Source: Escherichia phage sortkaff
Direction: 5' to 3' (one strand)
DNA length: 42,446 nt
Sequence record: MN850581.1
Shown here: piece by piece, positions 2,758 to 41,546 of the stretch
Layout of the letters: every line of letters begins with the position of its first letter
How positions within the stretch are numbered: the first letter of the stretch is position 1
Made by a program: the position numbers and the translations under genes
Notes under the pieces: model-generated
What the model was told of the DNA's origin: nothing
What the model saw: only the letters and a program-made list of their open reading frames with translations
Database searches by the model: none

Positions 2758-3138
2758 TCACCACTTCCTCCAGTCGGCAGGGTCGCGCGGGAGCTGCGCC
2801 AGGTCATGGTCCCACTTCGGGGCCTCGTCCGGCTTGCGGTAGCCGTCGTAAAGCATCTGGACCGCCGCGATCGGGTGAGCCGGGAGCGACTCATGGATGT
2901 ACAGATAGAACATGCCGCGCCGTCCCTCGTGGGTGATGCCGAAGCCGCTCCGGGTGTAGGTGTGGAGCGGCTGGTCGCCAGGTGCGGTCGGCATGGTGTC
3001 GGCGAGATACTGGATCGCGCTGGCGTGGAGTGGTGACGGCATCATGATTTGCGGCGTCCCTTCGGTCAGGGTGACGCGCTTGCCATCGTGCGGGCCTCCA
3101 ATCAGGAGCGCCTCGACTAAGTTTGCGGGGTGTTGCAT
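2758..3138 (-). CDS. hypothetical protein
   Basis: 126-aa ORF with RBS GGGAGGA 3 nt before the ATG. Confidence 0.65.
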   Translation of the reverse strand: MQHPANLVEALLIGGPHDGKRVTLTEGTPQIMMPSPLHASAIQYLADTMPTAPGDQPLHTYTRSGFGITHEGRRGMFYLYIHESLPAHPIAAVQMLYDGYRKPDEAPKWDHDLAQLPRDPADWRKW

Positions 3139-3222
3139 GGATCCTCCCAGTCTACGGGGTCGAATGATTAGCGCCTACTTGCGGCCCTCTGGGCTTCCAT
3201 CGTTCGGCGCTGGTGGTATCGG

Positions 3223-3573
3223 TCAGAATGGCGCGCCGTGGGTAGCGCGTAGCTCGTCTGGAGTCAGCGGCAGGCCGACCGGGCCGACTGGCCGCGATGC
3301 CTTGAGCTGGTTCCAGTAGGCAAACGGTCCAGCGTCGCGCCATGAATGATTGTACTTGCCGAAGGACAGGGAGCCGGAGCTGGTGGCCGGGCCATCGTAG
3401 CCGACGCGCTCAAGCTCTGCGAGCGGGACTAACATCAGCGTGTCCAGGGTGTGGACGCCATCGGGATAGCGGTAAACCTCGGCGCGCACGAGGGCAGGGA
3501 AGCGGACACGCTCGAAGCCGCTCCGCCCGTTGTAGCCGTAGGCGTCGGCGTGGAGGATCTCGATCATTTTCAT
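3223..3573 (-). CDS. hypothetical protein
   Basis: 116 aa from ATG-AAA-ATG (MKMIEIL...) within the longer six-frame ORF; purine-rich leader. Confidence 0.55.
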   Translation of the reverse strand: MKMIEILHADAYGYNGRSGFERVRFPALVRAEVYRYPDGVHTLDTLMLVPLAELERVGYDGPATSSGSLSFGKYNHSWRDAGPFAYWNQLKASRPVGPVGLPLTPDELRATHGAPF

Positions 3574-3625
3574 GGTGTTGTCTCTCGTCGGGTGGATGAA
3601 TGCCCCGTTGCCGGGGCGCTGGTGG

Positions 3626-3859
3626 TCAGACGCCGTAACGGTCGGCAAGGAAAGAAAACCAGTTTTCAAGGCTGGCGCGTTGTTTGGCTGAAATGCCGTC
3701 GCCGTAGCGCTCCACCATTTCCGCAAACTTGCCTTTGATTGCTTTGAGGCGTTCAGCGTTCACGAAGTACGGGCCGAATGCGTCAAACGCGAAGCCGGAG
3801 CGGTCGCCCGCGCGGTTAAGAATGTCTTTGATTTGTGCAACGGTGAATTTATTAGCCAT
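3626..3859 (-). CDS. hypothetical small protein
   Basis: 77 aa from MANKFTV...; RBS GGAGAAA 5 nt upstream of the ATG. Confidence 0.65.
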   Translation of the reverse strand: MANKFTVAQIKDILNRAGDRSGFAFDAFGPYFVNAERLKAIKGKFAEMVERYGDGISAKQRASLENWFSFLADRYGV

Positions 3860-3966
3860 TTTCGTTTCTCCTCTGGGGGTCGGCGATGTTGCCGCCCTAT
3901 GTGATATAAGATAAACACTTTCGGGCGGCATGTCCAGAGAAATATCACGAAAAGATTAAATTATTT

Positions 3967-4155
3967 TCAGGCCAGATCGTCGTCCACTCTCCGGCCCAGC
4001 GCTGCCACGTCGTCCTCGGTTGCCGGACGGTAGCCATAACCAGGCCCCAGCTTGCGGGCGATGTGCTGCGCCTGCGCCTGGTTCAGCGTCACGGCGATCA
4101 GATTATTGGCCGCATCGACCACGCAGTGGGCTGCGTTTGCTGCTGCTATGTTCAT
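3967..4155 (-). CDS. hypothetical small protein
   Basis: 62 aa from MNIAAANA...; RBS GAGGTGAG; ATG overlaps the upstream stop (ATGA). Confidence 0.6.
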   Translation of the reverse strand: MNIAAANAAHCVVDAANNLIAVTLNQAQAQHIARKLGPGYGYRPATEDDVAALGRRVDDDLA

Positions 4156-4388
4156 CGTCTCACCTCGTCCGCCAGCTCCTGCTCCAGTTGGGAGACCTGC
4201 GCGCAAACGTCGTCGAAGTCCTCCATCTTGTCCAGCAAGCGGCGCGCAAGATGCCTCACGACCTCCTCGCAGTCGAGGCCGCCGATCGAGCTGGGCGGAT
4301 AACCTTCGCTTAACATGGTCAGCTCTGCGTCGTCCAGCTCCTGCTCGTCCAGGTGGCGGACTGGTCGGGCCAGTTCCAGCTTATTCAT
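4152..4388 (-). CDS. hypothetical small acidic protein
   Basis: 78 aa from MNKLELARP...; RBS GAAGGGAGG; start overlaps the upstream gene's end. Confidence 0.6.
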   Translation of the reverse strand: MNKLELARPVRHLDEQELDDAELTMLSEGYPPSSIGGLDCEEVVRHLARRLLDKMEDFDDVCAQVSQLEQELADEVRR

Positions 4389-4611
4389 TGTCGCCTCCCT
4401 TCGCTGCTGCTCTGCGCTGCTCGTCCATCTTCGCCACAAACTCCCGGACGCCCTGCTCCGCGAGCGCCGTCGCCTGGTTATGGCTGTAGCCCTTGCGGCG
4501 GGCTATGTCGTAAAGCTGCTGGCGCATCGTCGCCCGTTGCTGCGGTCCTACATACATACGGGAGAGGTCCGTCACGCTTGCCGCCTGCCCTTTCGTCGTC
4601 TCTTTCATCAT
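4381..4611 (-). CDS. hypothetical small protein
   Basis: 76-aa ORF starting ATGATG with RBS ACGAGG. Confidence 0.6.
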   Translation of the reverse strand: MMKETTKGQAASVTDLSRMYVGPQQRATMRQQLYDIARRKGYSHNQATALAEQGVREFVAKMDEQRRAAAKGGDNE

Positions 4612-4631
4612 TACCTCGTTTTGTCGGGGCC

Positions 4632-5081
4632 GTAACGAAACCGTTACAGCTTGAGAATGTTACACACGATCGCGATTAACAGCGTTAACCCTGCGCCGTA
4701 GACTGCGAAACATATCCAGAGAAATGTCCACGATCCGACGGCTTCCCGGAGTGGTGTTTCCTGCTCCGGCGATGTTCTCCCTCGCGCTTTCCGGGAGGGG
4801 AATTTTATCACGTTAATAGTATGCTCCTTTGCATCACGTTTCAATGATAATTATGTGTGGAAATGGTCGGGGGTTTTGGGGTTTTAACCCCCGGCAAAAT
4901 CCCCGCCGTAACACTCAAAAAATACCCGTTACCGGAATGGCTGTAAGTTACTGAATATCATCGGTAACATTGTCGGTGTAACAGTGTTACCTTTTTGAAA
5001 CTTCGGAGCCACTGGGTAACGGTAACATAAATATATACCCCCTTTAGGGGGTATATGTTATGTAACCCGTGACCGTTACCA
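4632..5081. repeat. cluster of GTAAC/GTTAC iteron-like repeats and palindromes in a roughly 480-bp largely non-coding region
   Basis: About 13 GTAAC/GTTAC pentamers in about 450 bp: palindrome GTAACGAAACCGTTAC (4632-4647), CGGTAACAttgtCGGTGTAACAGTGTTAC (4962-4990), GGTAACGGTAAC (5015-5026), GTAACccgtgaccGTTAC (5062-5079). Also a 10-bp-arm palindrome ATATACCCCC-TTTA-GGGGGTATAT (5033-5056) and hairpin CGGGGGTT/AACCCCCG (4868-4893). Confidence 0.6.
4816..4844 (-). promoter_or_regulatory. sigma70-like promoter (-35 TTGAAA, 17-bp spacer, -10 TACTAT) with CGTGAT in the spacer and again just after the -10
   Basis: Minus-strand reading TTGAAA-CGTGATgcaaaggagca-TACTAT-taaCGTGAT; would drive the downstream early small genes (4611 leftward). 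Confidence 0.4.
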
Positions 5082-5094
5082 GGAAATGTGACCG

Positions 5095-6753
5095 TTAAAA
5101 ATCGTTAAGATCGTCGGCCCCGTCGTCGGCTTTATTGCCCCAGTCAGTCGGGCGCGGATCGTTATCCTTTATCCCACCCAGGAGCGGGATCGCTTCGTTC
5201 ATGGCGGTGAGCGTTTCGTCCCCGGCCATCTTGATCAGGATCTGCTTTTTGGTGGCATGTTCAAAGGCGCGATGGAATTGCATCTTGTCCATCGGGTCGT
5301 CGGTCCCGGTGCGCGCCCAGTCCGATAACATGCCTTTGGTAAGTTTCGGCGTCCGGTAGTTCTTTTCCTTTCGCGTCAGGTTGTACTCGTGGACAAACTG
5401 CGCCAGCCGGAGGGCGTTCTCCTGCGTCCGGCTCACCTTCTGCGCTGCGGCCTTCTCCTCGTCCGCGCCTGCGTCCTGTTTCACCAGCTCCGGCTCGTTG
5501 ATAACGATCAGGGTCGTGTCATTGCTGCCGATGTGCCACGCGGCGGGGCCGTCCTTCCCAGGTGCGGACATGCGCGCCATTGCGTCGCGTTTGGCCTTGA
5601 CCAGCTCCGGCGGGAGTTTAACGGACTTCGTGCGGAATGCGCGCCGCTCCAGCATGGCGGAGCCTTTGGCTTTGGTGTGATCGAATACGAACAAATCGCG
5701 GTCCTTGTGCTTCGAGAGCGTGATCTCAAAGGCGGAGTTAGCCTTGAGGGCAGACGCCCCACGTCCGCCGCGCGTTGCGTCCTTCCCGGAGTGGTGGAGG
5801 ATCACCACGGCACAGTCCAGCGCCTCGGCCAGCTTCTGCGCGTTGGCTAACAGGATCGCCGCCTGGTCGTTGTTGTTCTCGGTGAATGGCTCGCCGCCCA
5901 CCCAGCGCCCCGGCTCGTTGTCCTTCGGTTCGCGCCACTGCTCGCCGATCTTCTGGCCTGCGGAGTTGGCGCTATAGGTATCGATCACGACCAGCGCGGG
6001 CTTGTTGCCCTCCAGCTCGAAGAACGGGGAGGCGTTGAATTTGGCCGCGAATTTCATCAGCTCGCGCTCCCGGTGCAACGGTACGGGCTGCGCGATGATA
6101 AACAGGTTATCAAGCGGCTTGTTTTTGTTCTGGCTGTATACCCAGCCCGCATAGCGCTCTTTCACGCCGTCGGCGTCCTCTGGCGCGAAGTACAGCACGG
6201 AGCCTTTACGGACGGGCAAGCCCCCGAAGTGGTGGCCCTTCGCCACGCAGATAGCCATCTGGAGCGCACAAAACGTTTTCTTTGCCCCGGACTCGCCGAC
6301 CAGGAAGCCCACGGACCGCTCCGGGATCAGGTTCTGGATCACGAAGTTGATAACACGCGGGGCGCTGGCCTCCCGGAGCTTGTCCAGAAATTCGTCCGGC
6401 TGCTCCGCCAGCATGGCCTTAATTTTCGCCAGGTCACGCTCGCGGCGCTCCTCGGTGGTCAGGCTGCGCGGCATCATGGCGGGCTGGTTGTCCTCGTCCA
6501 GTACCATGTCCCACTCGTGATCCGCTTCGTTTGTGCCGAAGTGGTAGAGCTGCACGTCCTCTAACGTCATTCCCTGCTCTGCGGCTGCGTCCTCGTCGAT
6601 CGCCATCTGTCGGGCCAGCTCGTCCTCGCTCATTCCCGGCGAAGTCTCCAGCCATTCCGGCGGCTGCTCCAGAGGCCCGTCGTCTGGGAGGATCTGGTCG
6701 AGTAGCTCCTCTTTGCTCGGCTCCTGCTGGTCGTCTCTTTCGTCTTGGATCAT
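5095..6753 (-). CDS. RepA-like / RecA-fold (AAA_25-like) replication ATPase, putative replicative helicase or initiator
   Basis: 552-aa ORF with a degenerate P-loop VGESGAKKTFCALQMAICVAKG followed by hydrophobic-Asp Walker B (ALVVIDTYS) and an ILHHSGK motif; RBS AAGGAAAG; flanked on both sides by GTAAC repeats. Confidence 0.6.
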   Translation of the reverse strand: MIQDERDDQQEPSKEELLDQILPDDGPLEQPPEWLETSPGMSEDELARQMAIDEDAAAEQGMTLEDVQLYHFGTNEADHEWDMVLDEDNQPAMMPRSLTTEERRERDLAKIKAMLAEQPDEFLDKLREASAPRVINFVIQNLIPERSVGFLVGESGAKKTFCALQMAICVAKGHHFGGLPVRKGSVLYFAPEDADGVKERYAGWVYSQNKNKPLDNLFIIAQPVPLHRERELMKFAAKFNASPFFELEGNKPALVVIDTYSANSAGQKIGEQWREPKDNEPGRWVGGEPFTENNNDQAAILLANAQKLAEALDCAVVILHHSGKDATRGGRGASALKANSAFEITLSKHKDRDLFVFDHTKAKGSAMLERRAFRTKSVKLPPELVKAKRDAMARMSAPGKDGPAAWHIGSNDTTLIVINEPELVKQDAGADEEKAAAQKVSRTQENALRLAQFVHEYNLTRKEKNYRTPKLTKGMLSDWARTGTDDPMDKMQFHRAFEHATKKQILIKMAGDETLTAMNEAIPLLGGIKDNDPRPTDWGNKADDGADDLNDF

Positions 6754-6790
6754 ACTGCTTTCCTTAAATCATGGTAACGTTGTCGGTAAC

Positions 6791-6819
6791 AATGTACCCC
6801 CGACGCGTTACCCGGTCAA
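6791..6819 (-). promoter_or_regulatory. leftward promoter for the RepA-like gene (-35 TTGACC, 17-bp spacer, -10 TACATT)
   Basis: Back-to-back with the rightward promoter. The predicted transcript start falls inside two direct GGTAAC repeats (6773-6778 and 6785-6790, 12-bp period) that sit between promoter and RBS. Confidence 0.4.
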
Positions 6820-6842
6820 CCCGCCGCCAGCAAAGAAAAAAC

Positions 6843-6871
6843 TTTACATCATGGTTTCATTGTTCTAATGT
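6843..6871 (+). promoter_or_regulatory. rightward early promoter (-35 TTTACA, 17-bp spacer, -10 TAATGT) with upstream A-tract
   Basis: TTTACA-tcatggtttcattgttc-TAATGT preceded by caaagaaaaaac; downstream RBS GGAGG 5 nt before the ATG at 6898. Confidence 0.5.
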
Positions 6872-6897
6872 CGATAGCGAACAAACCGGAGGCATTT

Positions 6898-7353
6898 ATG
6901 GACCTGTTCAAAGACGAGCCGCGCGCCCCACTTCGGGCCAACGTGGCGCAACGTAAGACGCCAGCGGAGAGAATGCTGGAGATACTGGAAAAGGTTAAGC
7001 CGTCCGATCTCTCCATTCAGGACGCCATCGATCGCGGTGTACTCGATCCGTTTGGTGTAACGCAGGAAGTCCGGGACGCTTTCGCCCGGTTAAAACCGTC
7101 GGAGCAAATCTTCGCCGCGTTCTGGGGCGTTGCTGGTGTGGACAGTAAGGCATTGCTGGCCCTATGCCGACACGCCGCATTCATGGAGCGCGACGGACTG
7201 CTCCGCGATCTCAAAGTGGACAAGGAGCTGATCGCCTGCCCGGTGTCAGACTCCGACGGACTCGACGACGTGATCCCCCCAGGGGCGCCAGTCGGGCCGG
7301 AATTAGCCGCCGCTGCGTTGCGGTGTAAGCAGGCGTTACGGAGTGAGAAATGA
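6898..7353 (+). CDS. hypothetical protein (first gene of rightward early operon)
   Basis: 151 aa from the second in-frame ATG; the first ATG at 6868 lies inside the predicted -10 hexamer and lacks an RBS. Confidence 0.65.
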   Translation: MDLFKDEPRAPLRANVAQRKTPAERMLEILEKVKPSDLSIQDAIDRGVLDPFGVTQEVRDAFARLKPSEQIFAAFWGVAGVDSKALLALCRHAAFMERDGLLRDLKVDKELIACPVSDSDGLDDVIPPGAPVGPELAAAALRCKQALRSEK

Positions 7354-15592: not shown

Positions 15593-15618
15593 GGCCCCTC
15601 GTGCGGGGCCTTTTTTTT
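15593..15618 (+). terminator. canonical rho-independent terminator oriented for plus-strand transcripts
   Basis: GGCCCC-tcgtgc-GGGGCC followed by T8. The T-tract overlaps the primase stop codon on the opposite strand; no plus-strand gene is evident upstream. Confidence 0.55.
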
Positions 15619-16429
15619 ACCCAAACGCGCCGCAATAGTCAGCGCCCCAGCAAGCCCTCCCCGTCCGCTCGTGCCGATACATCCAGATCTCGTCCGGGTC
15701 AGTCGCCACCATGCGAAGCTCCCGATCGCCCTCATACTCCAGCGCCACCTCGACGGCATTACCCGGCGTAAACGTCAGCCAGACCTCGGCCCCTGTCCGC
15801 GCGGCCACCTTTGCAGCATGGCCGGGATCGGCCACCAGATAAGCCGTCTTGCCCTCGGCGACTGGGTGGATCAGGCCGTAGGATCCCCACGTCGGGCCGC
15901 CTGCTGCAAACGTCACGGAGCGGTCAGGCGCTATCTTCGCCACATTGCAGGGCGATCCCCCCAGCGCACGGAAGCACGGCACATACAGGAAGCCGCCGCG
16001 CATGGTCCCTTTGCTCATGATCAGCTCGACCTCCTCCGGCTTGAGGCTCCAGTCCTCGCGGGGCCGCTGCTGCATGGCTGCGAATTTCTTCGCCTCTTTG
16101 ACGATGGTTTCCCGCTTCTCCGGGGTGAGTCCGCCGATCCAGTCGCCCAGGTCGTTGATCGCCTCGTTGAATGGCTGGTTACGGGAGGCCATAAACCAAA
16201 ACATCCCATCACGCGCGCCGCCACACGAGCCGGAGCAATACGCGAAGCCGTCCCGGCGTTTTTCCTTGTCCTTGTGGCCCCAGCGGAAACGGTCGTTTCC
16301 TCCACATATCGGGCATGGTTGATGCCGCCCCTTGAATATGGCGCGGTCCCAGCCGCACAGCTCGATCAGGACTTGCTCCCATTTGTCCGGCATGGCGGCC
16401 AGTACATCCTCTTTTTTATAAATTGCCAT
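15617..16429 (-). CDS. DNA primase (zinc-ribbon plus TOPRIM-like domain)
   Basis: 270 aa; T7/P4-type primase zinc ribbon CPICGGNDRFRW ... YCSGSCGG; downstream acidic motifs (VAEGKTAYLVADPG, ATDPDE) consistent with TOPRIM; RBS GGAGGA. Confidence 0.7.
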   Translation of the reverse strand: MAIYKKEDVLAAMPDKWEQVLIELCGWDRAIFKGRHQPCPICGGNDRFRWGHKDKEKRRDGFAYCSGSCGGARDGMFWFMASRNQPFNEAINDLGDWIGGLTPEKRETIVKEAKKFAAMQQRPREDWSLKPEEVELIMSKGTMRGGFLYVPCFRALGGSPCNVAKIAPDRSVTFAAGGPTWGSYGLIHPVAEGKTAYLVADPGHAAKVAARTGAEVWLTFTPGNAVEVALEYEGDRELRMVATDPDEIWMYRHERTGRACWGADYCGAFG

Positions 16430-19060: not shown

Positions 19061-20107
19061 ATGGAACTACAAACAAACGGCCTGATCCCTGAGCTGCCGA
19101 CGATGGAAGTTTACGGATCGATGTTTATCGACGCCCGCGCGGCGGAGGACCTGAGTAACGAAGCCTATCACGAGGACGAGATCTATATTACCGGGTCGAG
19201 CCTCTGGACTATCTTTAGCCAGTGTCCGGCGGCGTGGCGTTTCCAGAAAGCACAGGAGGACAAGGCCAAAAAACTTAACTCCGCCCAGAAGCCGCTCACG
19301 TTCGGGACCACTTCCCACACGATGTTACTTGAGCCGGACCGCTTCCAGCGCGAGTTTTACCGCCTGCCTAACCCGGACGACTTCCCGGAGCTGATTACCT
19401 CTATGGCGAAGATGCAAGCCTGGTTAAAGGAGCGCGGCCAGAAGGGCTACTCCAACAAAACGGCGGAGGAGCTGATCGCGATGTGTCGCCAGATCCAGCA
19501 ACCGGACGAAGTGCTAAACATCTGGCACGAGATCGAGGCAAACGCCATCAAAGAGGCGAACGGTCGCGAGATCGTCCCGGCGAAGGACTGGGACCGCGTT
19601 CACTCTATGCGCGACGTGCTGCTGGCTAACCACAATTACCGCCGGATCATTGAGACGGGGATCCCGGAGCTGTCCATCTTCTGCATTATCGACGGCGTTC
19701 CCGTTAAGGTGCGTCTGGACCGCGTAACGGACCTCGGCGAGATCATCGACTACAAAACCACGCAAAGCGCGGAGCCGGAGCGCTTCGGTCGTCTGGCTCA
19801 CGATCTGGGCTACTGGTGCAAGATGGCGTTACAGCATGACTGCTTCCAGCTCTGCTACCAGCAAAACCCGACCGGGACGAAGTTACTTGTACAGGAGAAG
19901 GACGAGCCGTGGCTGGCGCTCATGAATCGCCTTACGCCTGAGCAATTGATGATCGGGCGCGGCCAGTACAAGACGGCGCTCCAGCTCTTTAAACAGTGCC
20001 GCGATCTGGATATCTGGCCCGCATACGCGAACGGCCAGGAGGAGATCGACCTCCGCACTCCGATTTATTTACAGCAACGTTACAAAGAATATTTTAAGGA
20101 GATCTAA
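19061..20107 (+). CDS. PD-(D/E)XK recombination exonuclease (RecB/YqaJ-like fold)
   Basis: 348 aa; motif LDRVTDLGEIIDYKTT (D ... DYK) typical of RecB-family nucleases; sits directly upstream of the ERF annealing protein. Confidence 0.7.
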   Translation: MELQTNGLIPELPTMEVYGSMFIDARAAEDLSNEAYHEDEIYITGSSLWTIFSQCPAAWRFQKAQEDKAKKLNSAQKPLTFGTTSHTMLLEPDRFQREFYRLPNPDDFPELITSMAKMQAWLKERGQKGYSNKTAEELIAMCRQIQQPDEVLNIWHEIEANAIKEANGREIVPAKDWDRVHSMRDVLLANHNYRRIIETGIPELSIFCIIDGVPVKVRLDRVTDLGEIIDYKTTQSAEPERFGRLAHDLGYWCKMALQHDCFQLCYQQNPTGTKLLVQEKDEPWLALMNRLTPEQLMIGRGQYKTALQLFKQCRDLDIWPAYANGQEEIDLRTPIYLQQRYKEYFKEI

Positions 20108-22565: not shown

Positions 22566-24929
22566 CTACGGCCCGGAGGTGATACGCGGGCGCGTTACGA
22601 TCTGCTTGTACATCCTGATCTGAGTCTCCGCCGGGACCGCCGTCTGGATAGGGTCGGCAATGTCCACAACGATCGGCTTGCCCGTATCGTCCGGCGGCGT
22701 CTGGTACGGAGGGCGGACGACCGTCGTAACGAGGTCAGCGCCACCAGCGCCAGCGCCGGGGATAACGATCCGCGTACCGGGGGACAGCATCGTGGTATAG
22801 AGCCACGGGGATCCGGTACTCGTGCCGTTAGGCGTCAGCCATTGGGTGATCGACTTCTGGCCGACACTGGCGGCGAGGATCTTCGCCTGGTTCCCGGTCG
22901 GGAAGTACGCGCCAGCCTCGACGACCAGATAAGGCTTAAGCCCTACGATCCCATTAGGACCGCCCGCCGGGTCGTTGCTGCCATAGTCATAAGTCCAGAC
23001 CAGATCGCCCCGGTCAAACTCGCGGCCACACGGGAAGAAATTACCGTACCCGCCGTGGGAGGTGATATCAGGGAAAAACTGCTTAGACACTCCCCCCAGC
23101 ATGGCCCCCAGAGAGCCGTCAATATTGACGTACATCCGGGCCTCGACGTTACAGTTAATCATGTTGATATTGCTGTAACGGCATTTGCTCCACGCCTGCG
23201 TTACCGGGTTCAGGCTGTTCACGTTCATCATGTTCAGCACGGACTTAGTACGAATGTACTGGCCGGAGGAGGTGGTCCCGCCTGCGGAGTCGTCGCCGAT
23301 CGCGTCCAGCTCCCAGAAATTCACGTTAAACATGTCGAGCTGAGTCGCCACGCCGAAGATCGTCAGCTTATAGCAGTCGATGTTTTCCAGCTTAACGCGG
23401 TTGTCGTGCGGCGCACGGTTGACGCCTGCGGTCGGGTCGCCGGGGTCGGCTGCTACCGGGCAGTAAACGCGGCCAGTTTTCGTCTTAACGTTGCGGATCG
23501 TGTAGTTGCGCGGCGCGGACTGGCGAGGCGGCCCCCATTCCATATGGATGATTCGCAGATCGTGGACGTCGGTCGTCGCGTTGCCGACGGGTTCCCCGGT
23601 CACGCCGTCGATCACGAAGTCTTTACAGCCAGACGTGTAGATCCCGGCGGTGGTGATACCAGTCCCCACGGACTTGTTAACGTCAGGGTTTACGCAAACA
23701 TTCTCGATCACGAAGTCGCGGCCCATTTCAACGTGAATACACTGTTTACACGCATTAACAAGGACGTTACGGATCGTGAAGTTGCGCGCGTAGTTTTCAT
23801 CAGGCAGATCCCAGCCGTAAGGGCCTTTGCCCGCCACGCCGATCCCCAGCCCCCAGTTAGACGCAAAGCTGCCGGGGTTAATCCCGTCGATGTTGTCGAG
23901 GAGGATATTTTCGATCACGCATCCATCCTGGAAACACTGGTGGACCACGTTAAGCTCGATCCCGTCGCCCTGCATGTTGACGAAAGCGAGGTTGCGGAAG
24001 ATGCCGCGCGACATAAACGCATTCCCGCCCTGGTGAATGATGCCGTTATAGCCGTTGGTAAACAGACAACCGTCGATCTCGATCGTTCCCCAGATCTGCG
24101 GGCCGCCGGATTGTACGCCCTGGATGTTGATATGGCTGTTATTGCTGCCGCCGGGGATCCCGTCGTACCAGCAATCGAACATCCTCACGTCGCCGCCGTC
24201 ATGGCGCATACGGTGGCCGTTACGGCCATTAACGCCGCGTAGGGTGGTATTCTGACACCACATCGAACGACCGCGCCACGTACCGCCGATAACCTCGCAA
24301 TTCACGAAGCGGGGATCGTTGCCAGTCAGCGTCCAGTCGCCGCCGAAAATGCGAATATTGGAGGCAGTCAGGATCCCGTTAGTGGTCCCTTTCCAGCCGT
24401 CCGCCCGGACGTCGAGGCCGTTCGCGCTGGCGTAGTCAAACATGGCCTGTAAAGCTGCCGTTACAGTTGCGTAAGGTGCTTTGCCGACGAAGTTCCACGG
24501 CGTCACATAGCCGTTTAGCTGCTCCTGCACATTGCCGACGGGCGTCCCGACGTACTTCGCCCCGTTCTGGGACAGAAGCAAATTCCACATCTGGACGGGA
24601 TCATATTTAAAGAGATTGGAAAAGGTGAAGATCACGACGTCGTTTTGGTCTGCGACGACCATAGACGACTCAATTTTGGTGATCAGCTTGACCACTTGAC
24701 CATTCCAGACCGGGAAGCCTGCGACGTTCGTCCGCACGGGTTGCGGGATAGGCGTCAGGGTCCCGTCCTCGTTCTCGACGTAGACCTGGACCTGGTTCGC
24801 CGGGTTAGTGGGATCCGTGTCAGCCTTTCCCGCGTAGATCTTCCCGTTCGCCAGCGCGGCGAAACGGTCGTTGCGAAAGAAAGGTTGCGACGGCATTCCC
24901 AGATTGGAAAAGACCTCAAGATCTGCCAT
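22566..24929 (-). CDS. tailspike protein with P22 gp9-type N-terminal head-binding domain and right-handed beta-helix-like receptor-binding domain
   Basis: 787 aa; N-terminal about 110 aa align with P22 tailspike recalled from memory (FAALANGKIYAGKADTDPTNPANQVQVYVENEDG ... NGQVVKLI versus [34 protein letters not shown] ... NGQLVKIV); the rest is divergent, Gly/Asn-rich and repetitive. Confidence 0.85.
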   Translation of the reverse strand: MADLEVFSNLGMPSQPFFRNDRFAALANGKIYAGKADTDPTNPANQVQVYVENEDGTLTPIPQPVRTNVAGFPVWNGQVVKLITKIESSMVVADQNDVVIFTFSNLFKYDPVQMWNLLLSQNGAKYVGTPVGNVQEQLNGYVTPWNFVGKAPYATVTAALQAMFDYASANGLDVRADGWKGTTNGILTASNIRIFGGDWTLTGNDPRFVNCEVIGGTWRGRSMWCQNTTLRGVNGRNGHRMRHDGGDVRMFDCWYDGIPGGSNNSHINIQGVQSGGPQIWGTIEIDGCLFTNGYNGIIHQGGNAFMSRGIFRNLAFVNMQGDGIELNVVHQCFQDGCVIENILLDNIDGINPGSFASNWGLGIGVAGKGPYGWDLPDENYARNFTIRNVLVNACKQCIHVEMGRDFVIENVCVNPDVNKSVGTGITTAGIYTSGCKDFVIDGVTGEPVGNATTDVHDLRIIHMEWGPPRQSAPRNYTIRNVKTKTGRVYCPVAADPGDPTAGVNRAPHDNRVKLENIDCYKLTIFGVATQLDMFNVNFWELDAIGDDSAGGTTSSGQYIRTKSVLNMMNVNSLNPVTQAWSKCRYSNINMINCNVEARMYVNIDGSLGAMLGGVSKQFFPDITSHGGYGNFFPCGREFDRGDLVWTYDYGSNDPAGGPNGIVGLKPYLVVEAGAYFPTGNQAKILAASVGQKSITQWLTPNGTSTGSPWLYTTMLSPGTRIVIPGAGAGGADLVTTVVRPPYQTPPDDTGKPIVVDIADPIQTAVPAETQIRMYKQIVTRPRITSGP

Positions 24930-27991: not shown

Positions 27992-29308
27992 TTAAAGCCC
28001 CTCCGGTAAAAATCCGAATTTTGCCTTAAATTGCTCTTTACGGGTAGGGGTAGGCTCCGCATAAAGTGCATCGATCGCCGCCTGCGCATTTTGAACGGGC
28101 ATCCCCCCAGCCGAAAGCTGGCCGACTGCTGCGGTCTTGCTGTCGTCGATCGCAATGTCGCGCTTGTACGCTTCGACGCGCCCGCCCTGCGATTTCTCGA
28201 TCGCGTCCTTGCCTTTGCTGAGGGCGTCAACGTAGCGCTGCATGACGTCTTTTAGCTGCTGCTCGCTCATGGTTCGCGGGTCTGCGCTGATCAGTGCCTG
28301 AGCTGCGGCGCGGCCCTCCTGCTCGGTTACGGGGCCAGTACCGCGCAAAGCCTGAATACCCGCGACGCGGGCCTGGTCTTTCATCTGGTTAAACTGGTTC
28401 ATGATTTCCGCCGTAGCGTCACCGCCACCAGTGGCCGCACTCCATGCCCTGTTACCCAGACCGTTGATCCCGGTAACGAAGCCCAGATCCTTACGCTCAA
28501 GCAAGCGTTTCGCCTGGTCGATCGCCGTGTCGATCGGCGCGAGCGTGGTCTGGTACGTCTGGAGAAAATCGCGTTTCGTGTTGAGCTGGTCGGCCTGCAT
28601 CTTGCTTTGTTGCTGGAGCAATTTCGAGCGCTCAATGTCGTTTTTCTCCTGAGAGATCCGCGTGTTAAGGCGCTCCGTTTGCAGACCGATGTAACGGAGG
28701 TTACGGTCCGCCGCGTTACTGGCCGCCGTGACGTCCTGGCCCCGGATCGTGGTCTGGTTCTTCATGACCTCTTTCGCGTAGTCCAGTTGATCCTTGCTGG
28801 TATTGCTCGCCAGGTGGAGCGCCTGCACGGAGCGACGGAAGCCGTCCGGGTCGGTCGCTGCGGCCTGATAGGCTTTCTGCGGGTCGATACCCAGCGCCTT
28901 AAGCGCGTCCGCGTTCTGCTGGACAAACTGCTGGGTCTGCTCCGGCCCCTGCGAGAGCGCGACGTCTGCCTGGCTGGCGAGCTGCGCGCCCTGCTGCTGG
29001 CGGATCCCGTCCATCATGCCTAAGCGCTTTTGTAGCGCCTCGATCTGGTTCGGGTACTTGTACGCCAGCGCCTGCAATTTCGACGGATCACCCTGCGCGG
29101 CCTGCCAGTCAGCATTGAATTGCTTCATTTGCTCCTGTTGCTGCTGGGCGGCCTGCATTGCCATTCCCTGCTGTCGGTTCTGGATCGCCGCTGCGGTGTT
29201 CTGCTGGATCTGGCCGTAGTTGTTTAGCGTGTCCTGCGCGCCCTGCTGAATGATCCCGATATTCTGCGCGAAGGATCCAACGTTGGGATCAGTGCCGAAA
29301 ATAGCCAT
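27992..29308 (-). CDS. ejection protein (P22 gp20-like by position and size), Gln-rich coiled coil
   Basis: 438-aa ORF contiguous with neighbours; Q-rich helical sequence; assignment by synteny only. Confidence 0.6.
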   Translation of the reverse strand: MAIFGTDPNVGSFAQNIGIIQQGAQDTLNNYGQIQQNTAAAIQNRQQGMAMQAAQQQQEQMKQFNADWQAAQGDPSKLQALAYKYPNQIEALQKRLGMMDGIRQQQGAQLASQADVALSQGPEQTQQFVQQNADALKALGIDPQKAYQAAATDPDGFRRSVQALHLASNTSKDQLDYAKEVMKNQTTIRGQDVTAASNAADRNLRYIGLQTERLNTRISQEKNDIERSKLLQQQSKMQADQLNTKRDFLQTYQTTLAPIDTAIDQAKRLLERKDLGFVTGINGLGNRAWSAATGGGDATAEIMNQFNQMKDQARVAGIQALRGTGPVTEQEGRAAAQALISADPRTMSEQQLKDVMQRYVDALSKGKDAIEKSQGGRVEAYKRDIAIDDSKTAAVGQLSAGGMPVQNAQAAIDALYAEPTPTRKEQFKAKFGFLPEGL

Positions 29309-37671: not shown

Positions 37672-39906
37672 TTATTGTGCGGCACGTTCCAGGGTGTTGT
37701 CGGCCTGCTGCTGCGCCTGGCGCTCGGCCAGTTGCTGCGCTGCTCGGTCGCTCTGGATCTGGTGGCCCTGCCCTACGGATTTCAGGAACAAGTCGGCCTG
37801 TTTGTGCGCGTCCTGGCTCTGGGCCGTGACGTACTTCTGGAGGATGGCAACGGCGGCCATTAGCTGATCCTGCGGGATAGCTGCGGCCTCGGCCATCGTC
37901 TTGACGGTCTGCGCCTGCTTGAGCTGGCCGTCTGCCTGCGTCCCCTGCGCCTTGAGCTGCAATTCTAAGCGCTTGTTGTCCTGCTCCATAACGGCGGCCT
38001 TGCCCTGGTCTGCCACGCCCTGCGCTGCGACCATCTGCGCGTCCGGCTGGTCCTGCTGGCTCTGCTGGGCCTGCGCTACCATCTGTTTTTCCTCGTCCGT
38101 CTGCGGCTTCACAATGCCGGAGAGTAAAAGCTGGTTGCGGGTGTACTCTTTGAAGTCCTGGAGGCCCTCGCCGTCCATGTTCGCGATGATCAGGCTCATG
38201 ACGATCGTCGCGTTAGGGTCGCCCGGTTGCATGGTCGCTAACAGGTTAGTCAGGCTGCGGACAGTCTGCTGGCGTCGCGTCTGGGAGGACTCGCCGACGT
38301 CGGCCACGATCTCATATTTGCCGCGCTTGAGGTCGTTAATCGCGATCACTTCCTTCGTCTCGCGATCGACTACCTTCCCGGTCATTAACACGAGGTCGTC
38401 GCTCCCGTCCTCCTGCTGGATCCTCACGTAAGACTCGGAGCCGTAAACCTTGCGAGCGGCGGACAGGTAGACGCGGCCACAATGGCGCAACGTCTTAGCC
38501 AGGTTGTCCATGTAGAGCGCGCCCTGGCCGTCCATGCGCGCGAAAATTGCCTCCACGGTTTCAGTCGCCAGATTCGACGGCAGCGCTTCGAGCTGGGAGG
38601 ATCCGACAATCTGCTGGATCGTCGCCCCGGTGTACTGGAGAACGGCAGCGAGCGCCGGAGAGAGCGGAGTCGCCGGAGTATAGCCCAGCGGTCCGGCCTG
38701 CTGGACGACCTCACCAGACGCATTACGGAGCGATTTAGCGGGCAGATACGCGGGGCGCTTCGTGTTGCGATCCCCCCAGGCGTTGGCGAGATTTCCGGGG
38801 ATCATGTCGATATCCATGATCGGGATGTTGTCGCCGCCTGCCTGCGCGGCCTGGTCGGCCATCATCGACACGATCAGGTTTTCCAGACGCTGGGCGTCCA
38901 TCGCGAGCGTGGCGTGGCCCATCACGCGCTCCTGGTTGTCGATAAACGAGCGGCGCGCGTTGAAGATGAAAACCGGGATCCATTCGAACGGGATCAGCTT
39001 CGGCTCCTCGATCCACTCCCCGCCGGAAAACAGACCGCAATAGACCTTACGACGTTTGACACGGCGATCCTTGAGCTTTTTCCAGCCTGCGGCCTTAAGC
39101 TCGTCGAAAACCTGCTCCATGTCGTCCTCGTCGTAGACCTCCGTTTCCCCGGTGAGCGGGTTCTGGTAGGAGATCACGGTGGTGTCCTCGATCTTCACCT
39201 CGTAGTAACGGGCGATATAAATCGCGTCTTTAGAGGCCCAGTCAAACCATTTGCCCGTGTTCAGCTCCATGAGGTCCTCCGGGGCCATCGCGTCCGGGTA
39301 ACGCTCCTCGTACTTCTCCGGGGTCATGCTGAATAGCTCGGCCATCCACATAGCATCACTGCGATCGTACATTTTGGAGTCAGGATCGACAAAGAGGCAC
39401 GAGGCCGGATCGTAGATCGGGTAAAAGACGATGTGCCGCTCCTCGTTGTCGGGATCAAATTCGTCCTCCAGCTCCGTGTCCATGCGAAACGCGCCCATCC
39501 CGCCGTCGATGCCGTCGCCGTAAGTGTTATCGACGGACTCCGGCCCGTTGCTCTCGTTGTAGTCGGCGCGGAATTTGCCGTTTAGCTTGTCGGCCAGCTC
39601 CTCGGATGCCTTTTCGTCCTTCGGACGGAATACCACGGAGACACGGTTTAGGCGGTAATCGGTGATCAGGCGGTCGCACTCGCGGGCCACTTTGTTAAGT
39701 TCGAATCGAGGGTATTTCTCGAATCGTTCATCATCCATCGCAAAGCCGGAGTTGGTCGATCCTTCCCACTGCGCGCCCGGAATACGGACAAAGCGCTGGG
39801 TTTCGATCATTTTCTTGCGGCTTTGCTCCTCGCTGGCGATCGTCTGGCTCAGGCGCTTACGCGCCGTCTCATGCCAGTTCTGGGCCGATTTGGTGACTCG
39901 TGCCAT
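37672..39906 (-). CDS. portal protein, P22 gp1-like
   Basis: 744 aa; similarity to P22 portal recalled from memory (ARYYEVKIEDTTVISYQNPLTGETEVY ... KDRRVKRRKVY versus [27 protein letters not shown] ... AERQIKRRRVY); Gln-rich C-terminal helical region. Confidence 0.9.
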   Translation of the reverse strand: MARVTKSAQNWHETARKRLSQTIASEEQSRKKMIETQRFVRIPGAQWEGSTNSGFAMDDERFEKYPRFELNKVARECDRLITDYRLNRVSVVFRPKDEKASEELADKLNGKFRADYNESNGPESVDNTYGDGIDGGMGAFRMDTELEDEFDPDNEERHIVFYPIYDPASCLFVDPDSKMYDRSDAMWMAELFSMTPEKYEERYPDAMAPEDLMELNTGKWFDWASKDAIYIARYYEVKIEDTTVISYQNPLTGETEVYDEDDMEQVFDELKAAGWKKLKDRRVKRRKVYCGLFSGGEWIEEPKLIPFEWIPVFIFNARRSFIDNQERVMGHATLAMDAQRLENLIVSMMADQAAQAGGDNIPIMDIDMIPGNLANAWGDRNTKRPAYLPAKSLRNASGEVVQQAGPLGYTPATPLSPALAAVLQYTGATIQQIVGSSQLEALPSNLATETVEAIFARMDGQGALYMDNLAKTLRHCGRVYLSAARKVYGSESYVRIQQEDGSDDLVLMTGKVVDRETKEVIAINDLKRGKYEIVADVGESSQTRRQQTVRSLTNLLATMQPGDPNATIVMSLIIANMDGEGLQDFKEYTRNQLLLSGIVKPQTDEEKQMVAQAQQSQQDQPDAQMVAAQGVADQGKAAVMEQDNKRLELQLKAQGTQADGQLKQAQTVKTMAEAAAIPQDQLMAAVAILQKYVTAQSQDAHKQADLFLKSVGQGHQIQSDRAAQQLAERQAQQQADNTLERAAQ

Positions 39907-39923
39907 TGTGTTCTCCGTGGGTG

Positions 39924-41546
39924 TCAGTAGTTGCTCGGCACATTATAGCCGTGATAGTCGTCGTTTTTCACGCGCTCCGGCGGCTGCATCAACATGCAAA
40001 GCACGTCGGCCATGCCTGGCGATTTCATTTTGAGCTTGGTCCGCATCTGCGGCTTAGGCATACGGGCAAACTTGCCGTTGGTGTTGTATACGCGCGGAAT
40101 ACGGCAGACCTCGGCGCGTAACTTCTGCATATGCTCCCCGATCCCGGCCTTGTCCAGACTGATCAGCTCCTCCGGGTTGTGGTAGATGCCTTTCACGACG
40201 GCCTCGTAAGTCTTTTCGAAGCGACGGCGTAACAGGTAGATATCCTGGCTCCCCCTGTTCGCAAAAGCATCAACATTTTTCAGGAGGTTGTCGCCCTCGG
40301 TCTTGTTGTTGAGCCAGTGATCCAGCTCCACCAGCCCGTCCGGGTCTTTGACGCCCTCCCCGGCGTTGTAGCCGTCCACGATAACGTTAGTCCCGGCGTA
40401 AGCCTCCGTTACCTGGCGACGCAGGCCAGCGCCCAGCCCTGCCCGGTCCCACACAAAAGCCTCGACGCCGTGGATCTTCGCCTCGCCGATCGCCCGGTCT
40501 ACTGCGTCGTTAGCGTCGCCCTCGTACCACTCGGACATATGGGTGACGACTGGCCCCTGGCGCTCGCCATAGGCTTTGTTATCGGTCCCGACGTCCGCCG
40601 GGTCGAGTGCTGCGATCCTCATGCCGGACGGTTTAAAGCCTAAATGCAAATGAGCGTCGATCGCGGCATCAAACCATTCAGCCGGGATAATGGCATCCGG
40701 CACGGAGTCATTGAAATGACCTTCCCAGACGTGATCGAACAAGGCGCGGGAGAGGGTTTTCCGGTCAAACTCCATTTCTGCGCGGAGTTCGGGCGGAAAC
40801 CACGGGTTATCCGACCAGTTGACGCGGATAACCAGGTGGAGATCGTCCTCATAGATGCCGTCGCGGAGTAGATCCTCCCAGAATGGATTAATAAATCGCT
40901 TGCTGAATGGGTCCTCACTGGATCCGGGGTTGGCGGTGAATAGCATCATGCCGCCCTTTTCGCGCATGGTCGGCGTCAGCTTGCGGATCGACTCCTCGGA
41001 GAACGTTTGCGCCTCCTCGCCCCAGAATCGTTTGAAGCCGAAAGCGGATTTCACGCCGTCCGGGTCGCGGGCCATCCCCTTAAAACGGATGATCGCGCCG
41101 TTCTCGTGGCGGATCTCCTTCTCCAGAATTTCGAAGCCGTCCAGACCGTACTCCTCGATCCGGTTGGCGAGGAGCGGGTGGACAGAATCCTTGATCGACG
41201 CCTGAAACTCACGCAGACACATAGCGCTCGCGGCCTCGTCGTGGGCGTCTGCATCCACGATCCCGCCGACGGTGAGCGACTTCCCGGAGCCACGGCCCCC
41301 GACCAGGATAACGAAGCGTTTCGGGCGTAACAGGATGGGCGTCAGGCACTCGGCGATCGTAATGTCGTGCGGGTCGCTGGTGTAAACCCACTCGCCGTTA
41401 ACCTTGCGCATGTTGTACAGGTGGCGCGCCTGCAATCCATCCGGCGCATAGACGCCGTAAACCAGGCCGCCCTCGCGCGCCTTGTAGCGGAGCATGGCCT
41501 CCAGTCGGGCCAGTCGCTCGATCGCCTCCTTACGATTTTTTGCCAT
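39924..41546 (-). CDS. terL: terminase large subunit
   Basis: 540 aa; Walker A VILVGGRGSGKS; size and position directly upstream of portal. Confidence 0.85.
   Translation of the reverse strand: MAKNRKEAIERLARLEAMLRYKAREGGLVYGVYAPDGLQARHLYNMRKVNGEWVYTSDPHDITIAECLTPILLRPKRFVILVGGRGSGKSLTVGGIVDADAHDEAASAMCLREFQASIKDSVHPLLANRIEEYGLDGFEILEKEIRHENGAIIRFKGMARDPDGVKSAFGFKRFWGEEAQTFSEESIRKLTPTMREKGGMMLFTANPGSSEDPFSKRFINPFWEDLLRDGIYEDDLHLVIRVNWSDNPWFPPELRAEMEFDRKTLSRALFDHVWEGHFNDSVPDAIIPAEWFDAAIDAHLHLGFKPSGMRIAALDPADVGTDNKAYGERQGPVVTHMSEWYEGDANDAVDRAIGEAKIHGVEAFVWDRAGLGAGLRRQVTEAYAGTNVIVDGYNAGEGVKDPDGLVELDHWLNNKTEGDNLLKNVDAFANRGSQDIYLLRRRFEKTYEAVVKGIYHNPEELISLDKAGIGEHMQKLRAEVCRIPRVYNTNGKFARMPKPQMRTKLKMKSPGMADVLCMLMQPPERVKNDDYHGYNVPSNY

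Follow-up and report, generated by a model that had tools for sequence, protein, structure and literature searches.

A candidate replication origin beside the RepA-like helicase gene of Escherichia phage sortkaff

The genome of Escherichia phage sortkaff (MN850581.1; 42,446 nucleotides, the whole of which is called the window here) carries a cluster of short words with the core GTAAC (GTTAC on the other strand) directly downstream of the minus-strand gene for a 552-aa RepA-like helicase. The explanation that we favour, with moderate confidence, is that the noncoding gap holding these words is the replication origin and that the helicase is its own initiator, with autoregulatory operators at the helicase promoter. 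The original prediction had described the words at 4632–5081 as iteron-like sites of the RepA-like protein, serving as an origin and for autoregulation. Comparison of 18 relatives strongly supports the reading of such sites by this protein, whereas the origin activity is what we infer. The window is an essentially complete, circularly permuted Sortsnevirus genome (~42 kb), in which the repeat region sits between two minus-strand units, the helicase gene and a run of small genes starting at 4611. The phage gene set includes a primase (15617–16429), SSB and recombination genes, and no DNA polymerase or separate initiator is found among the annotated genes. Over a queried stretch of 2.7 kb, Klebsiella phage vB_KpnS_IME279 (IME279) shows 98.3% identity to the window, and Kosakonia phage Kc237 and Escherichia phage Sortsne match it less well. 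The sequences compared (n = 18) are the window and the helicase neighbourhoods of nine isolate phages and eight metagenomic contigs; they are related, include near-duplicates and are not all independent. In the literature searched, no earlier account was found of a Sortsnevirus or Murrayvirus origin, nor of any self-loading helicase of the RepA-like kind; its coverage is incomplete, so the novelty of both is unproven.

Repeat words at two loci bracketing the helicase gene

Thirteen copies of GTAAC/GTTAC lie within 4632–5081 (Table 1), and the count of about 13 in ~450 bp made in the original prediction is confirmed position by position. The expected number is 0.87 to 1.9: at the density of the remaining genome, 450 bp would hold 0.87 copies (Poisson p = 1e-11), and 5000 dinucleotide-preserving shuffles of the gap gave a mean of 1.9 copies and a maximum of 7. 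GTAAC is the top enriched 5-mer of the gap, with GGTAAC and GTAACA the top 6-mers, and a scan of all words across all 250-bp windows identified this cluster as the strongest in the genome (p = 1.6e-10; next best 1e-6). The clustered sites share the consensus gGTAAC[R]nT. Counted genome-wide, GTAAC is not uniformly distributed, and GGTAAC occurs 25 times against 12.5 expected, with six copies in 4928–5080, three in 6773–6812 and the other 16 spread elsewhere at roughly the rate expected by chance. Two loci account for the whole GGTAAC excess, which argues for a two-locus system bracketing the helicase gene rather than a genome-wide operator set.

GTAAC is about twofold over-represented in the genome even when the clusters are subtracted (78 scattered copies vs ~46 expected; shuffle maximum 64). 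The scattered copies differ in context, having C at −1 and G at +1, and the genome-wide excess may be a codon-pair effect. Minor groups of three or four GTAAC occur in coding regions at 28691–28719 (three within 30 bp), 23148–23204 and 19724–19886, and they are devoid of the GGTAAC form except for one copy at 23200.

The noncoding gap (~4815/4845–5094, ~250–280 bp) is comparable to those of the Murrayviruses (253–272 bp) and has a GC content of 47.6%, versus ~60% for the genome. Ten GTAAC copies are packed into 190 bp, beginning 2 nt past the helicase stop codon. The functional core of the repeat region is narrower than first claimed and spans ~4908–5093; of the original extent, 4632–5081, this part stands, whereas the three copies at 4632–4663 probably lie outside the system. 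Read in the helicase sense from 2 nt past the stop, the first words are GGTCACA, GGTAACG, GGTCACG and GGTTACA. They are followed by a perfect palindrome, ATATACCCCCT-aa-AGGGGGTATAT (5033–5056), with a TAAA/TATA centre and ATATA flanks, beyond which lie the mirrored words TGTTACC and CGTTACC (5015–5026). The whole of 5015–5081 forms one extended imperfect palindrome, and its single-strand fold (−18.7 kcal/mol; z = −3.8) was matched by none of 200 shuffles. The segment 5017–5036 ranks 18th among the 42,426 20-bp windows for low duplex stability. On the far side, the distal word cluster contains a 13-bp palindrome, GTAACAgTGTTAC (4978–4990), and its ~30-bp stretch 4963–4991 resembles the operator pair in the helicase promoter at 6773–6804 (repeats D19 and I1).

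The distances between successive GTAAC copies are 11, 16, 249, 20, 19, 17, 14, 8, 30, 6, 40 and 13 bp. Spacing within the clusters is irregular (6–40 bp), and the roughly helical spacing that had been claimed does not hold; nor are the copies direct repeats of the plasmid-iteron type, being instead words of 6–9 bp mirrored about a palindrome. No long direct-repeat family was found in the gap, and a sigma-70 scan revealed no convincing conserved promoter among the gap words. The DnaA box TTATNCACA, with one mismatch at most, has 11 matches in the genome versus 13.5 expected and none within 4600–7000.

The second locus is the helicase promoter, with the −35 element TTGACC at 6819–6814 and the −10 element TACATT at 6796–6791. 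The pair of GGTAAC words 12 bp apart that had been noted upstream of the helicase is present at 6773–6778 and 6785–6790, just downstream of the −10 element, and a third, inverted copy at 6807–6812 directly follows the −35 element. The sites of the proposed initiator are thereby repeated, at the level of sequence, at its own promoter, as in autoregulated systems. A word-like GGTTTCA (6853–6859) also lies within the spacer of the divergent rightward promoter. The promoter region was aligned for 16 relatives, and CTTTACATCA in the divergent promoter is invariant in all of them.

The helicase C-terminal domain as candidate reader of the words

The layout is common to all 18 sequences: two or three words, a perfect palindrome in which a TATA-like centre separates the leading pyrimidine arm from the purine arm, and then mirrored words, with the dyad module placed 27–40 nt after the helicase stop. 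The palindrome arms change compensatorily (CCCCC/GGGGG, CTCTCTCT/AGAGAGAG and CTCCCTGT/ACAGGGAG), and the word orientation is mirrored in 14 of the 18 (left 35:5, right 3:36). Each phage or contig has 6–13 word matches (one mismatch at most) per 200 bp of gap and 1–4 per 110 bp of promoter, against a background of 0.3–1.6 per 310 bp. The word itself changes. It is GGTAACA in the window, IME279, Kc237, Lumpael, sortregn and P0017; GGTTACA in KMB41 and P0010; CGTTACA in P0012 and P0014; CGTTAA(C) in IME_EC2, sortsyn and P0005; ATAACAT in ST231; AGTAACA in P0007; and GGTTTCA or GGTATCA in Sortsne and P0003. The gap word of each phage recurs in its helicase promoter, where the word after the −35 element and the word embedding the −10 element switch type position for position with the gap word in the 16 aligned sequences. 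Distant helicase homologues (31–35% identity) show the same design with unrelated words. In Serratia phage Smarc2, CCATCCC stands left of the central palindrome and GGGATGG right of it, and the core ATCCC occurs five times in the helicase promoter region. Pantoea phage MED16, which has a 903-aa primase-helicase fusion, carries TGGATTAT...ATAATCCA mirrored about TATATCCCTATAGGGATATA, with the word GGATTAT.

The change of word is accompanied by a change in one segment of the helicase. Across Murrayviruses, the primase, DEAD-box helicase, methylases and terminase are 86–100% identical, whereas the RepA-like helicase is only 61–64% identical. A natural domain swap is provided by sortsyn and ST231, whose words differ (GTTAA vs ATAACA). 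Their helicases are 97–100% identical over ~440 alignment columns, fall to 35–51% in ~80 C-terminal residues and recover in the tail. At the DNA level, the flanks (81–100%) and the helicase body (88–100%, with one 100-bp window at 79%) are conserved between the two phages, whereas identity drops to 45% in the promoter patch, 53–66% in the C-terminal segment and 43–49% in the gap.

The same relation was found in partial Mantel regressions over 17 phages, in which the C-terminal segment was defined as window residues 445–525. Only this segment explained the k-mer similarity of the gap (coefficient 0.97–1.08) and of the promoter (coefficient 0.75–0.92), with 0 of 3000–5000 permutations as extreme in either case; the helicase body, the N-terminus and the divergent neighbour gene were not significant. 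The promoter result is the stronger argument of the two, yet it answers the question of linkage only indirectly. P0005 and sortsyn have a common recognition-helix sequence, RTDFFHAFEHATK, and a common word, CGTTAA, in different helicase backgrounds (N-terminus 27% and body 75% identical). Judged by co-variation only, iteron specificity would be set by the C-terminal domain of the helicase. Two other candidate readers were considered. The XRE/HTH_3 regulator is 99% identical between Lumpael (GTAAC) and ST231 (ATAACA), and its near-identity across word types excludes it as the reader. The first divergent gene is not supported as the reader either: sortsyn and ST231 are 84% identical in it, and it had no significant effect in the Mantel analysis.

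The helicase has a predicted RecA-fold ATPase core (residues ~130–400). RSF1010 RepA (PDB code: 1g8y) is its sole sequence match in the PDB (profile E = 2.4e-5), and Foldseek with the AlphaFold2 model returned RepA (1olo and 1g8y) with target-normalised TM-scores of 0.59–0.64 at 21–22% identity, along with RadA/Rad51, KaiC and DnaB-like proteins. The helicase therefore has a RecA-fold P-loop core with detectable RepA homology, one mark of the RSF1010 RepA-like replicative helicases, of which hexameric 5′–3′ activity is another. The C-terminal segment is modelled confidently as a winged helix, and sequence searches with this domain against PDB and Pfam gave nothing significant. We propose, from the model, that the winged helix (residues 442–517) would be the word-reading, origin-binding domain. 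It is followed by a disordered acidic tail with a conserved GGI..P.PTDW motif and a terminal acidic ...DDLNDF, in which P533, T536, D537, W538 and F552 are invariant in 24 homologues; the tails of distant relatives likewise end in EEDF, DDDQF or IIDF. The tail resembles the acidic, Phe-terminated tails of SSB, T7 gp4 and gp2.5 that dock polymerase or partners, and it may recruit the host replisome.

The N-terminal region of the helicase (residues 1 to ~125) is acidic, poorly ordered and hypervariable, with 13–45% identity within Murrayvirus versus 80–97% for the core. Its variation is independent of word type, and the region may serve partner interaction or be host-specific. In public records, the KMB41 helicase (38983–40638) is mislabelled as a 'cobalt-zinc-cadmium resistance protein', and the IME_EC2 helicase (38709–40396) is annotated as two coding sequences ('DNA primase' and a hypothetical protein), since its winged-helix region has an apparent frameshift when compared with the near-twin sortsyn.

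Proposed origin function and its alternatives

On the explanation that we favour, the C-terminal winged helix of the 552-aa helicase would read the short words (GGTNAC[R], core GTAAC). Same-orientation words, an A/T-centred palindrome and mirrored words would gather helicase subunits on both sides of an easily opened centre, and the helicase, needing no separate loader, would then load onto the DNA, probably in two rings so that replication is bidirectional. The second word set (4908–4991) would add binding capacity, and the three promoter copies, in the −35/−10 spacer and the start region, would let the same domain repress helicase synthesis. Physical binding, DNA melting, ring loading and the start of replication at the gap are all steps that we infer. 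It is possible, and we hold this more tentatively, that these phages, Sortsnevirus and Murrayvirus as well as the more distant Serratia and Pantoea phages, carry the first described self-loading initiator-helicase built on a RecA-fold core of the RSF1010-RepA/DnaB class, not on an AAA+ or superfamily 3 (SF3) core. A ring helicase of the superfamily 4 class would then find and open its own dyad origin through the fused winged helix, with no initiator or loader. At least eight word types accompany helicases that are otherwise near-identical, and the promoter operators match anew in every case, which suggests selection for replicon-specificity types among co-infecting phages. The winged-helix segment and the words appear to move as an exchangeable specificity cassette.

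Several observations weigh against this explanation. No experiments or replication-profile data were found for these phages, and GC-skew and cumulative-skew analysis of the window, a check suggested in the original prediction, was uninformative and gave no usable origin signal. The low-stability spot at 5017–5036 is not unique, other intergenic regions being alike, and words that overlap a promoter would equally fit a purely regulatory role. The C-terminal segment adjoins the gap, so linkage contributes to the correlation and part of the co-variation could be co-inheritance. The permutation p-values are optimistic because the 18 sequences include near-duplicates and share a phylogeny. IME_EC2 and ST231 differ in several other small proteins as well. 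The window and Lumpael both have GGTAAC, though their C-terminal segments are just 58% identical.

Some of these observations would fit words that are transcriptional operators only, acting at the helicase and divergent promoters and on gap read-through or the downstream small genes, with the origin elsewhere. We consider this unlikely. In the helicase promoter, the words do overlap the −35/−10 spacer, the −10 element and the start region, the divergent spacer has a word-like copy, the 4963–4991 stretch resembles the promoter operator pair, and the window palindrome is flagged as terminator-like. At least ten sites in ~190 bp, arranged as a dyad round a conserved palindrome, are however far beyond the need of a repressor, the gap words are accompanied by no convincing conserved promoter, and relatives do not conserve the T-run that follows the palindrome. 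The same design is an experimentally proven origin in the pathogenicity islands of Staphylococcus aureus (SaPIs; PMC9371898). The phage must have an origin, and the gap is the sole iteron-like cluster found. It is less probable still that a different phage or host protein binds the words and that they track the helicase C-terminus through joint inheritance as a recombination block. The adjacency of segment and gap, the small proteins that differ between IME_EC2 and ST231, and the merely proposed binding of the words by the helicase all leave room for such a protein. The promoter words, however, lie 1.3–1.7 kb away across a body that is 88–100% identical in sortsyn and ST231 and still switch with the segment, while the adjacent N-terminus and divergent gene do not explain them. 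The exclusion of the XRE regulator, the recognition helix and word shared by P0005 and sortsyn in different helicase backgrounds, and the predicted DNA-binding fold of the segment all point to the helicase.

Two further explanations concern the DNA itself. We rejected as very improbable a packaging signal or physical genome end, which is raised by the deposited records: position 1 of IME279 corresponds to window position 4563, and the Kc237 and Sortsne records begin within the gap. Against this, the IME279 start cuts a conserved ORF (open reading frame), the Murrayvirus records begin at unrelated places or are deposited as circular, and papers on these phages report no termini. The terminase genes (39924–41546 and upstream) are ~5–7 kb away, past the leftward early-gene block and across the window junction, and the words co-vary with the helicase, not with the terminase, which is 95–96% identical across Murrayvirus word types. 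Least probable of all, and already refuted, is that the palindrome is the intrinsic terminator of the helicase gene and the GTAAC copies are a compositional accident of the AT-richer gap. A scan does flag ATATACCCCCTAAAGGGGGTATAT followed by ATTTATGTTA as terminator-like, and the gap has the lower GC content given above. Yet the shuffles never exceeded 7 copies against the 13 observed, concerted word switching at two loci cannot be compositional, and the palindrome is kept in 18 of 18 sequences, most of them with no T-run on either strand, which argues against a terminator.

Comparable systems and neighbouring features

In phage P4, the C-terminal winged helix of the replication protein alpha binds 8-bp iterons, direct and inverted, at two loci (ori and crr). 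The origins of SV40 large T antigen and papillomavirus E1 consist of inverted pairs of penta- or hexanucleotides about a dyad beside easily melted DNA, and the reader of these words is a hexameric helicase, which assembles as a double hexamer and recognises them through its origin-binding domain. Large T and E1 are eukaryotic SF3 helicases with a different origin-binding fold, and their likeness to the phage system is by analogy only. RSF1010 (IncQ) has a separate initiator, RepC, which recognises the origin at direct iterons of 20 bp. RSF1010 RepA (PDB codes: 1g8y, 1nlf and 1olo) is the closest solved relative of the phage ATPase core by profile, belongs to the same Pfam family (AAA_25) and is among the best fold matches to that core. 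It is a protein of 279 aa without a DNA-binding domain, whereas the 552-aa phage protein has in addition an N-terminal region, a winged helix and an acidic tail.

Iteron plasmids (pSC101, F, R6K and RK2) share with the phage the repetition of initiator sites in the origin and in the initiator promoter (PMC4980987). Their iterons are tandem direct repeats of 17–22 bp, in contrast to the phage words of 6–9 bp, which are mirrored and irregular. Plasmid Rep is a dedicated two-winged-helix protein that recruits host DnaB, usually with DnaA boxes near (PMC4980987), whereas the proposed phage reader is the helicase. Neither 17–22-bp repeats in helical phase nor adjacent DnaA boxes are found in the phage region. 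The short mirrored words, the lack of a nearby DnaA box and the helicase as reader argue that this is not a classical plasmid iteron origin.

The closest likeness is to the Rep/ori systems of SaPIs, which are experimentally characterised self-loading initiator-helicases (PMC9371898). SaPI Rep reads penta- or hexanucleotide iterons through a C-terminal winged helix; 6–12 iterons lie immediately downstream of rep, and the ori has an AT-rich centre with at least two iterons per side in opposite orientation (PMC9371898). The phage helicase has a predicted C-terminal winged helix, ten copies of the pentanucleotide GTAAC lie directly downstream of its ORF, with the equivalent in all 18 sequences, and the A/T-rich centre is flanked by at least two opposed words per side. 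In both systems, iteron and C-terminal-domain specificity differ between elements, and some members have a separate primase, others a fused one (here, the MED16 relative). The core of SaPI Rep is AAA+ (SF3/MCM-like, 3′–5′; PMC9371898), whereas the phage core is RecA-fold and RSF1010-RepA-like, and no sequence similarity between the phage helicase and SaPI Rep was detected. Given its RecA-fold core, the phage helicase is not a member of the SaPI Rep family and shares the functional design only. The elements also differ, being a lytic enterobacterial podovirus and a Gram-positive satellite island, respectively; the phage centre is formed by a perfect palindrome, one arm pyrimidine and the other purine, and the phage has operator copies in the helicase promoter as well. 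Within the incompletely covered literature, the layout has been described previously only for this unrelated helicase type of the Staphylococcus islands.

For most lytic phages no origin is known, and annotation pipelines label such a helicase just as an 'AAA family ATPase'. The analysis yields a candidate origin together with a named reader domain (residues 442–517) and its DNA words, and the natural panel of at least eight word types offers specificity variants for a recognition code. The RecA-fold helicase class normally relies on separate initiators and loaders. If self-loading is true, the initiator-helicase design of SaPI Rep, P4 alpha and large T/E1 would extend to this class. A compact ori and helicase module could be of use in phage engineering, and the words could mark replicon types in therapeutic-candidate Klebsiella, E. 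coli and Salmonella phages.

Table 1. Coordinates of the features in the helicase region of the window
Feature	Position	Strand	Evidence or detail
552-aa RepA-like helicase gene, proposed initiator-helicase	5095..6753	-	Pfam AAA_25 1.2e-24; PHROG 2850
Winged-helix domain (predicted), residues 442–517	5203..5430	-	H1 442–463, H2 473–482, H3 490–503, beta-hairpin 507–517
Disordered acidic C-terminal tail, aa 520–552	5098..5196	-	pLDDT (predicted local distance difference test) <50
Core dyad of the proposed origin	5015..5093	.	sequence
Distal word cluster, six GTAAC (4908, 4928, 4947, 4964, 4978, 4986)	4908..4991	.	sequence
G and C blocks interleaved with A4/T4 tracts	4866..4907	.	sequence; inverted repeat I13
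Conserved 18-bp element ATCATTGAAACGTGATGC (helicase sense)	4831..4848	-	distal gap edge, just upstream of the small gene
Small protein gene, Lumpael gp13 homologue	4644..4814	-	tblastn 37.5% identity, E = 2e-8
Three further GTAAC copies	4632..4663	.	last codons of the small gene, its stop codon and the 32-nt spacer before the next gene
Helicase promoter, sigma-70-like TTGACC-17-TACATT, with operator words	6773..6819	-	promoter scan
Divergent rightward promoter TTTACA-17-TAATGT	6843..6871	+	sequence
GTAAC copies, plus strand	4632, 4908, 4964, 4978, 5016, 5022, 5062	+	
GTAAC copies, minus strand	4643, 4659, 4928, 4947, 4986, 5075	-	

The ORF at 4644–4844 had been taken as probably noncoding. 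Its product, from ~4814 on, aligns with Lumpael gp13 and with homologues in both genera, and this alignment identifies 4644–4814 as a genuine, conserved gene that adjoins the repeat system without belonging to it. Since the product aligns only from ~4814 down, the truly noncoding gap measures ~250–280 bp. The small protein has a conserved NVIxFPxR motif and a hydrophobic C-terminal helix, with homologues in most relatives. Candidate starts are GTG at 4811, ATT at 4817 and TTG at 4844; the ATT lies 6 nt and the GTG 12 nt beyond an AAGGAG Shine-Dalgarno sequence, and the Murrayvirus homologues start with ATG or TTG. A promoter-scan match at 4844–4816 was dismissed, as it is not conserved in Murrayviruses. 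The gene is unannotated in the IME279 and Kc237 records, and Kc237 is without the small membrane-protein gene. The three GTAAC copies at its end, which include a small hairpin, GTAACGaaacCGTTAC (4632–4647), have flanks (ccGTAACg, ctGTAACg and gtGTAACa) in which the G at −1, typical in the clustered words, is mostly missing. By this sequence context, they are probably not part of the origin system.

At the distal edge of the gap, the 18-bp element is kept as ATCATTGAWAMGTGATGC in the same place in 9 of 10 isolate-phage gaps of both genera, while the sequence around it diverges between phages; it is absent in Kc237. In Kc237, the distal half of the gap (ATATATCCCCCCCTCTAAAGAGGGGGGGGATATTATATCATAATGTAAAATTAATAC...) matches exactly what lies downstream of the unrelated helicase of Kc166B, a phage from the same study, and this identity points to a recent mosaic exchange at the locus. 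Between the 18-bp element and the distal words, the G/C-block element (4866–4907), with its phased A/T tracts, may be a bent DNA, hairpin or G-quadruplex element, and similar elements are present in Lumpael, sortregn, IME_EC2 and sortsyn. It includes G5T4G4T4AAC5 (4869–4892), which looks like two Oxytricha-type G4T4 telomere repeats.

On the other side of the helicase gene, the true start of the rightward gene is 6898, preceded by a GGAGG Shine-Dalgarno sequence and as annotated in IME279, not 6868. The PHROG match spans residues 11–161 of the ORF read from 6868. That mechanically called ORF, 6868–7353, begins with an ATG that falls within the rightward promoter's −10 hexamer.

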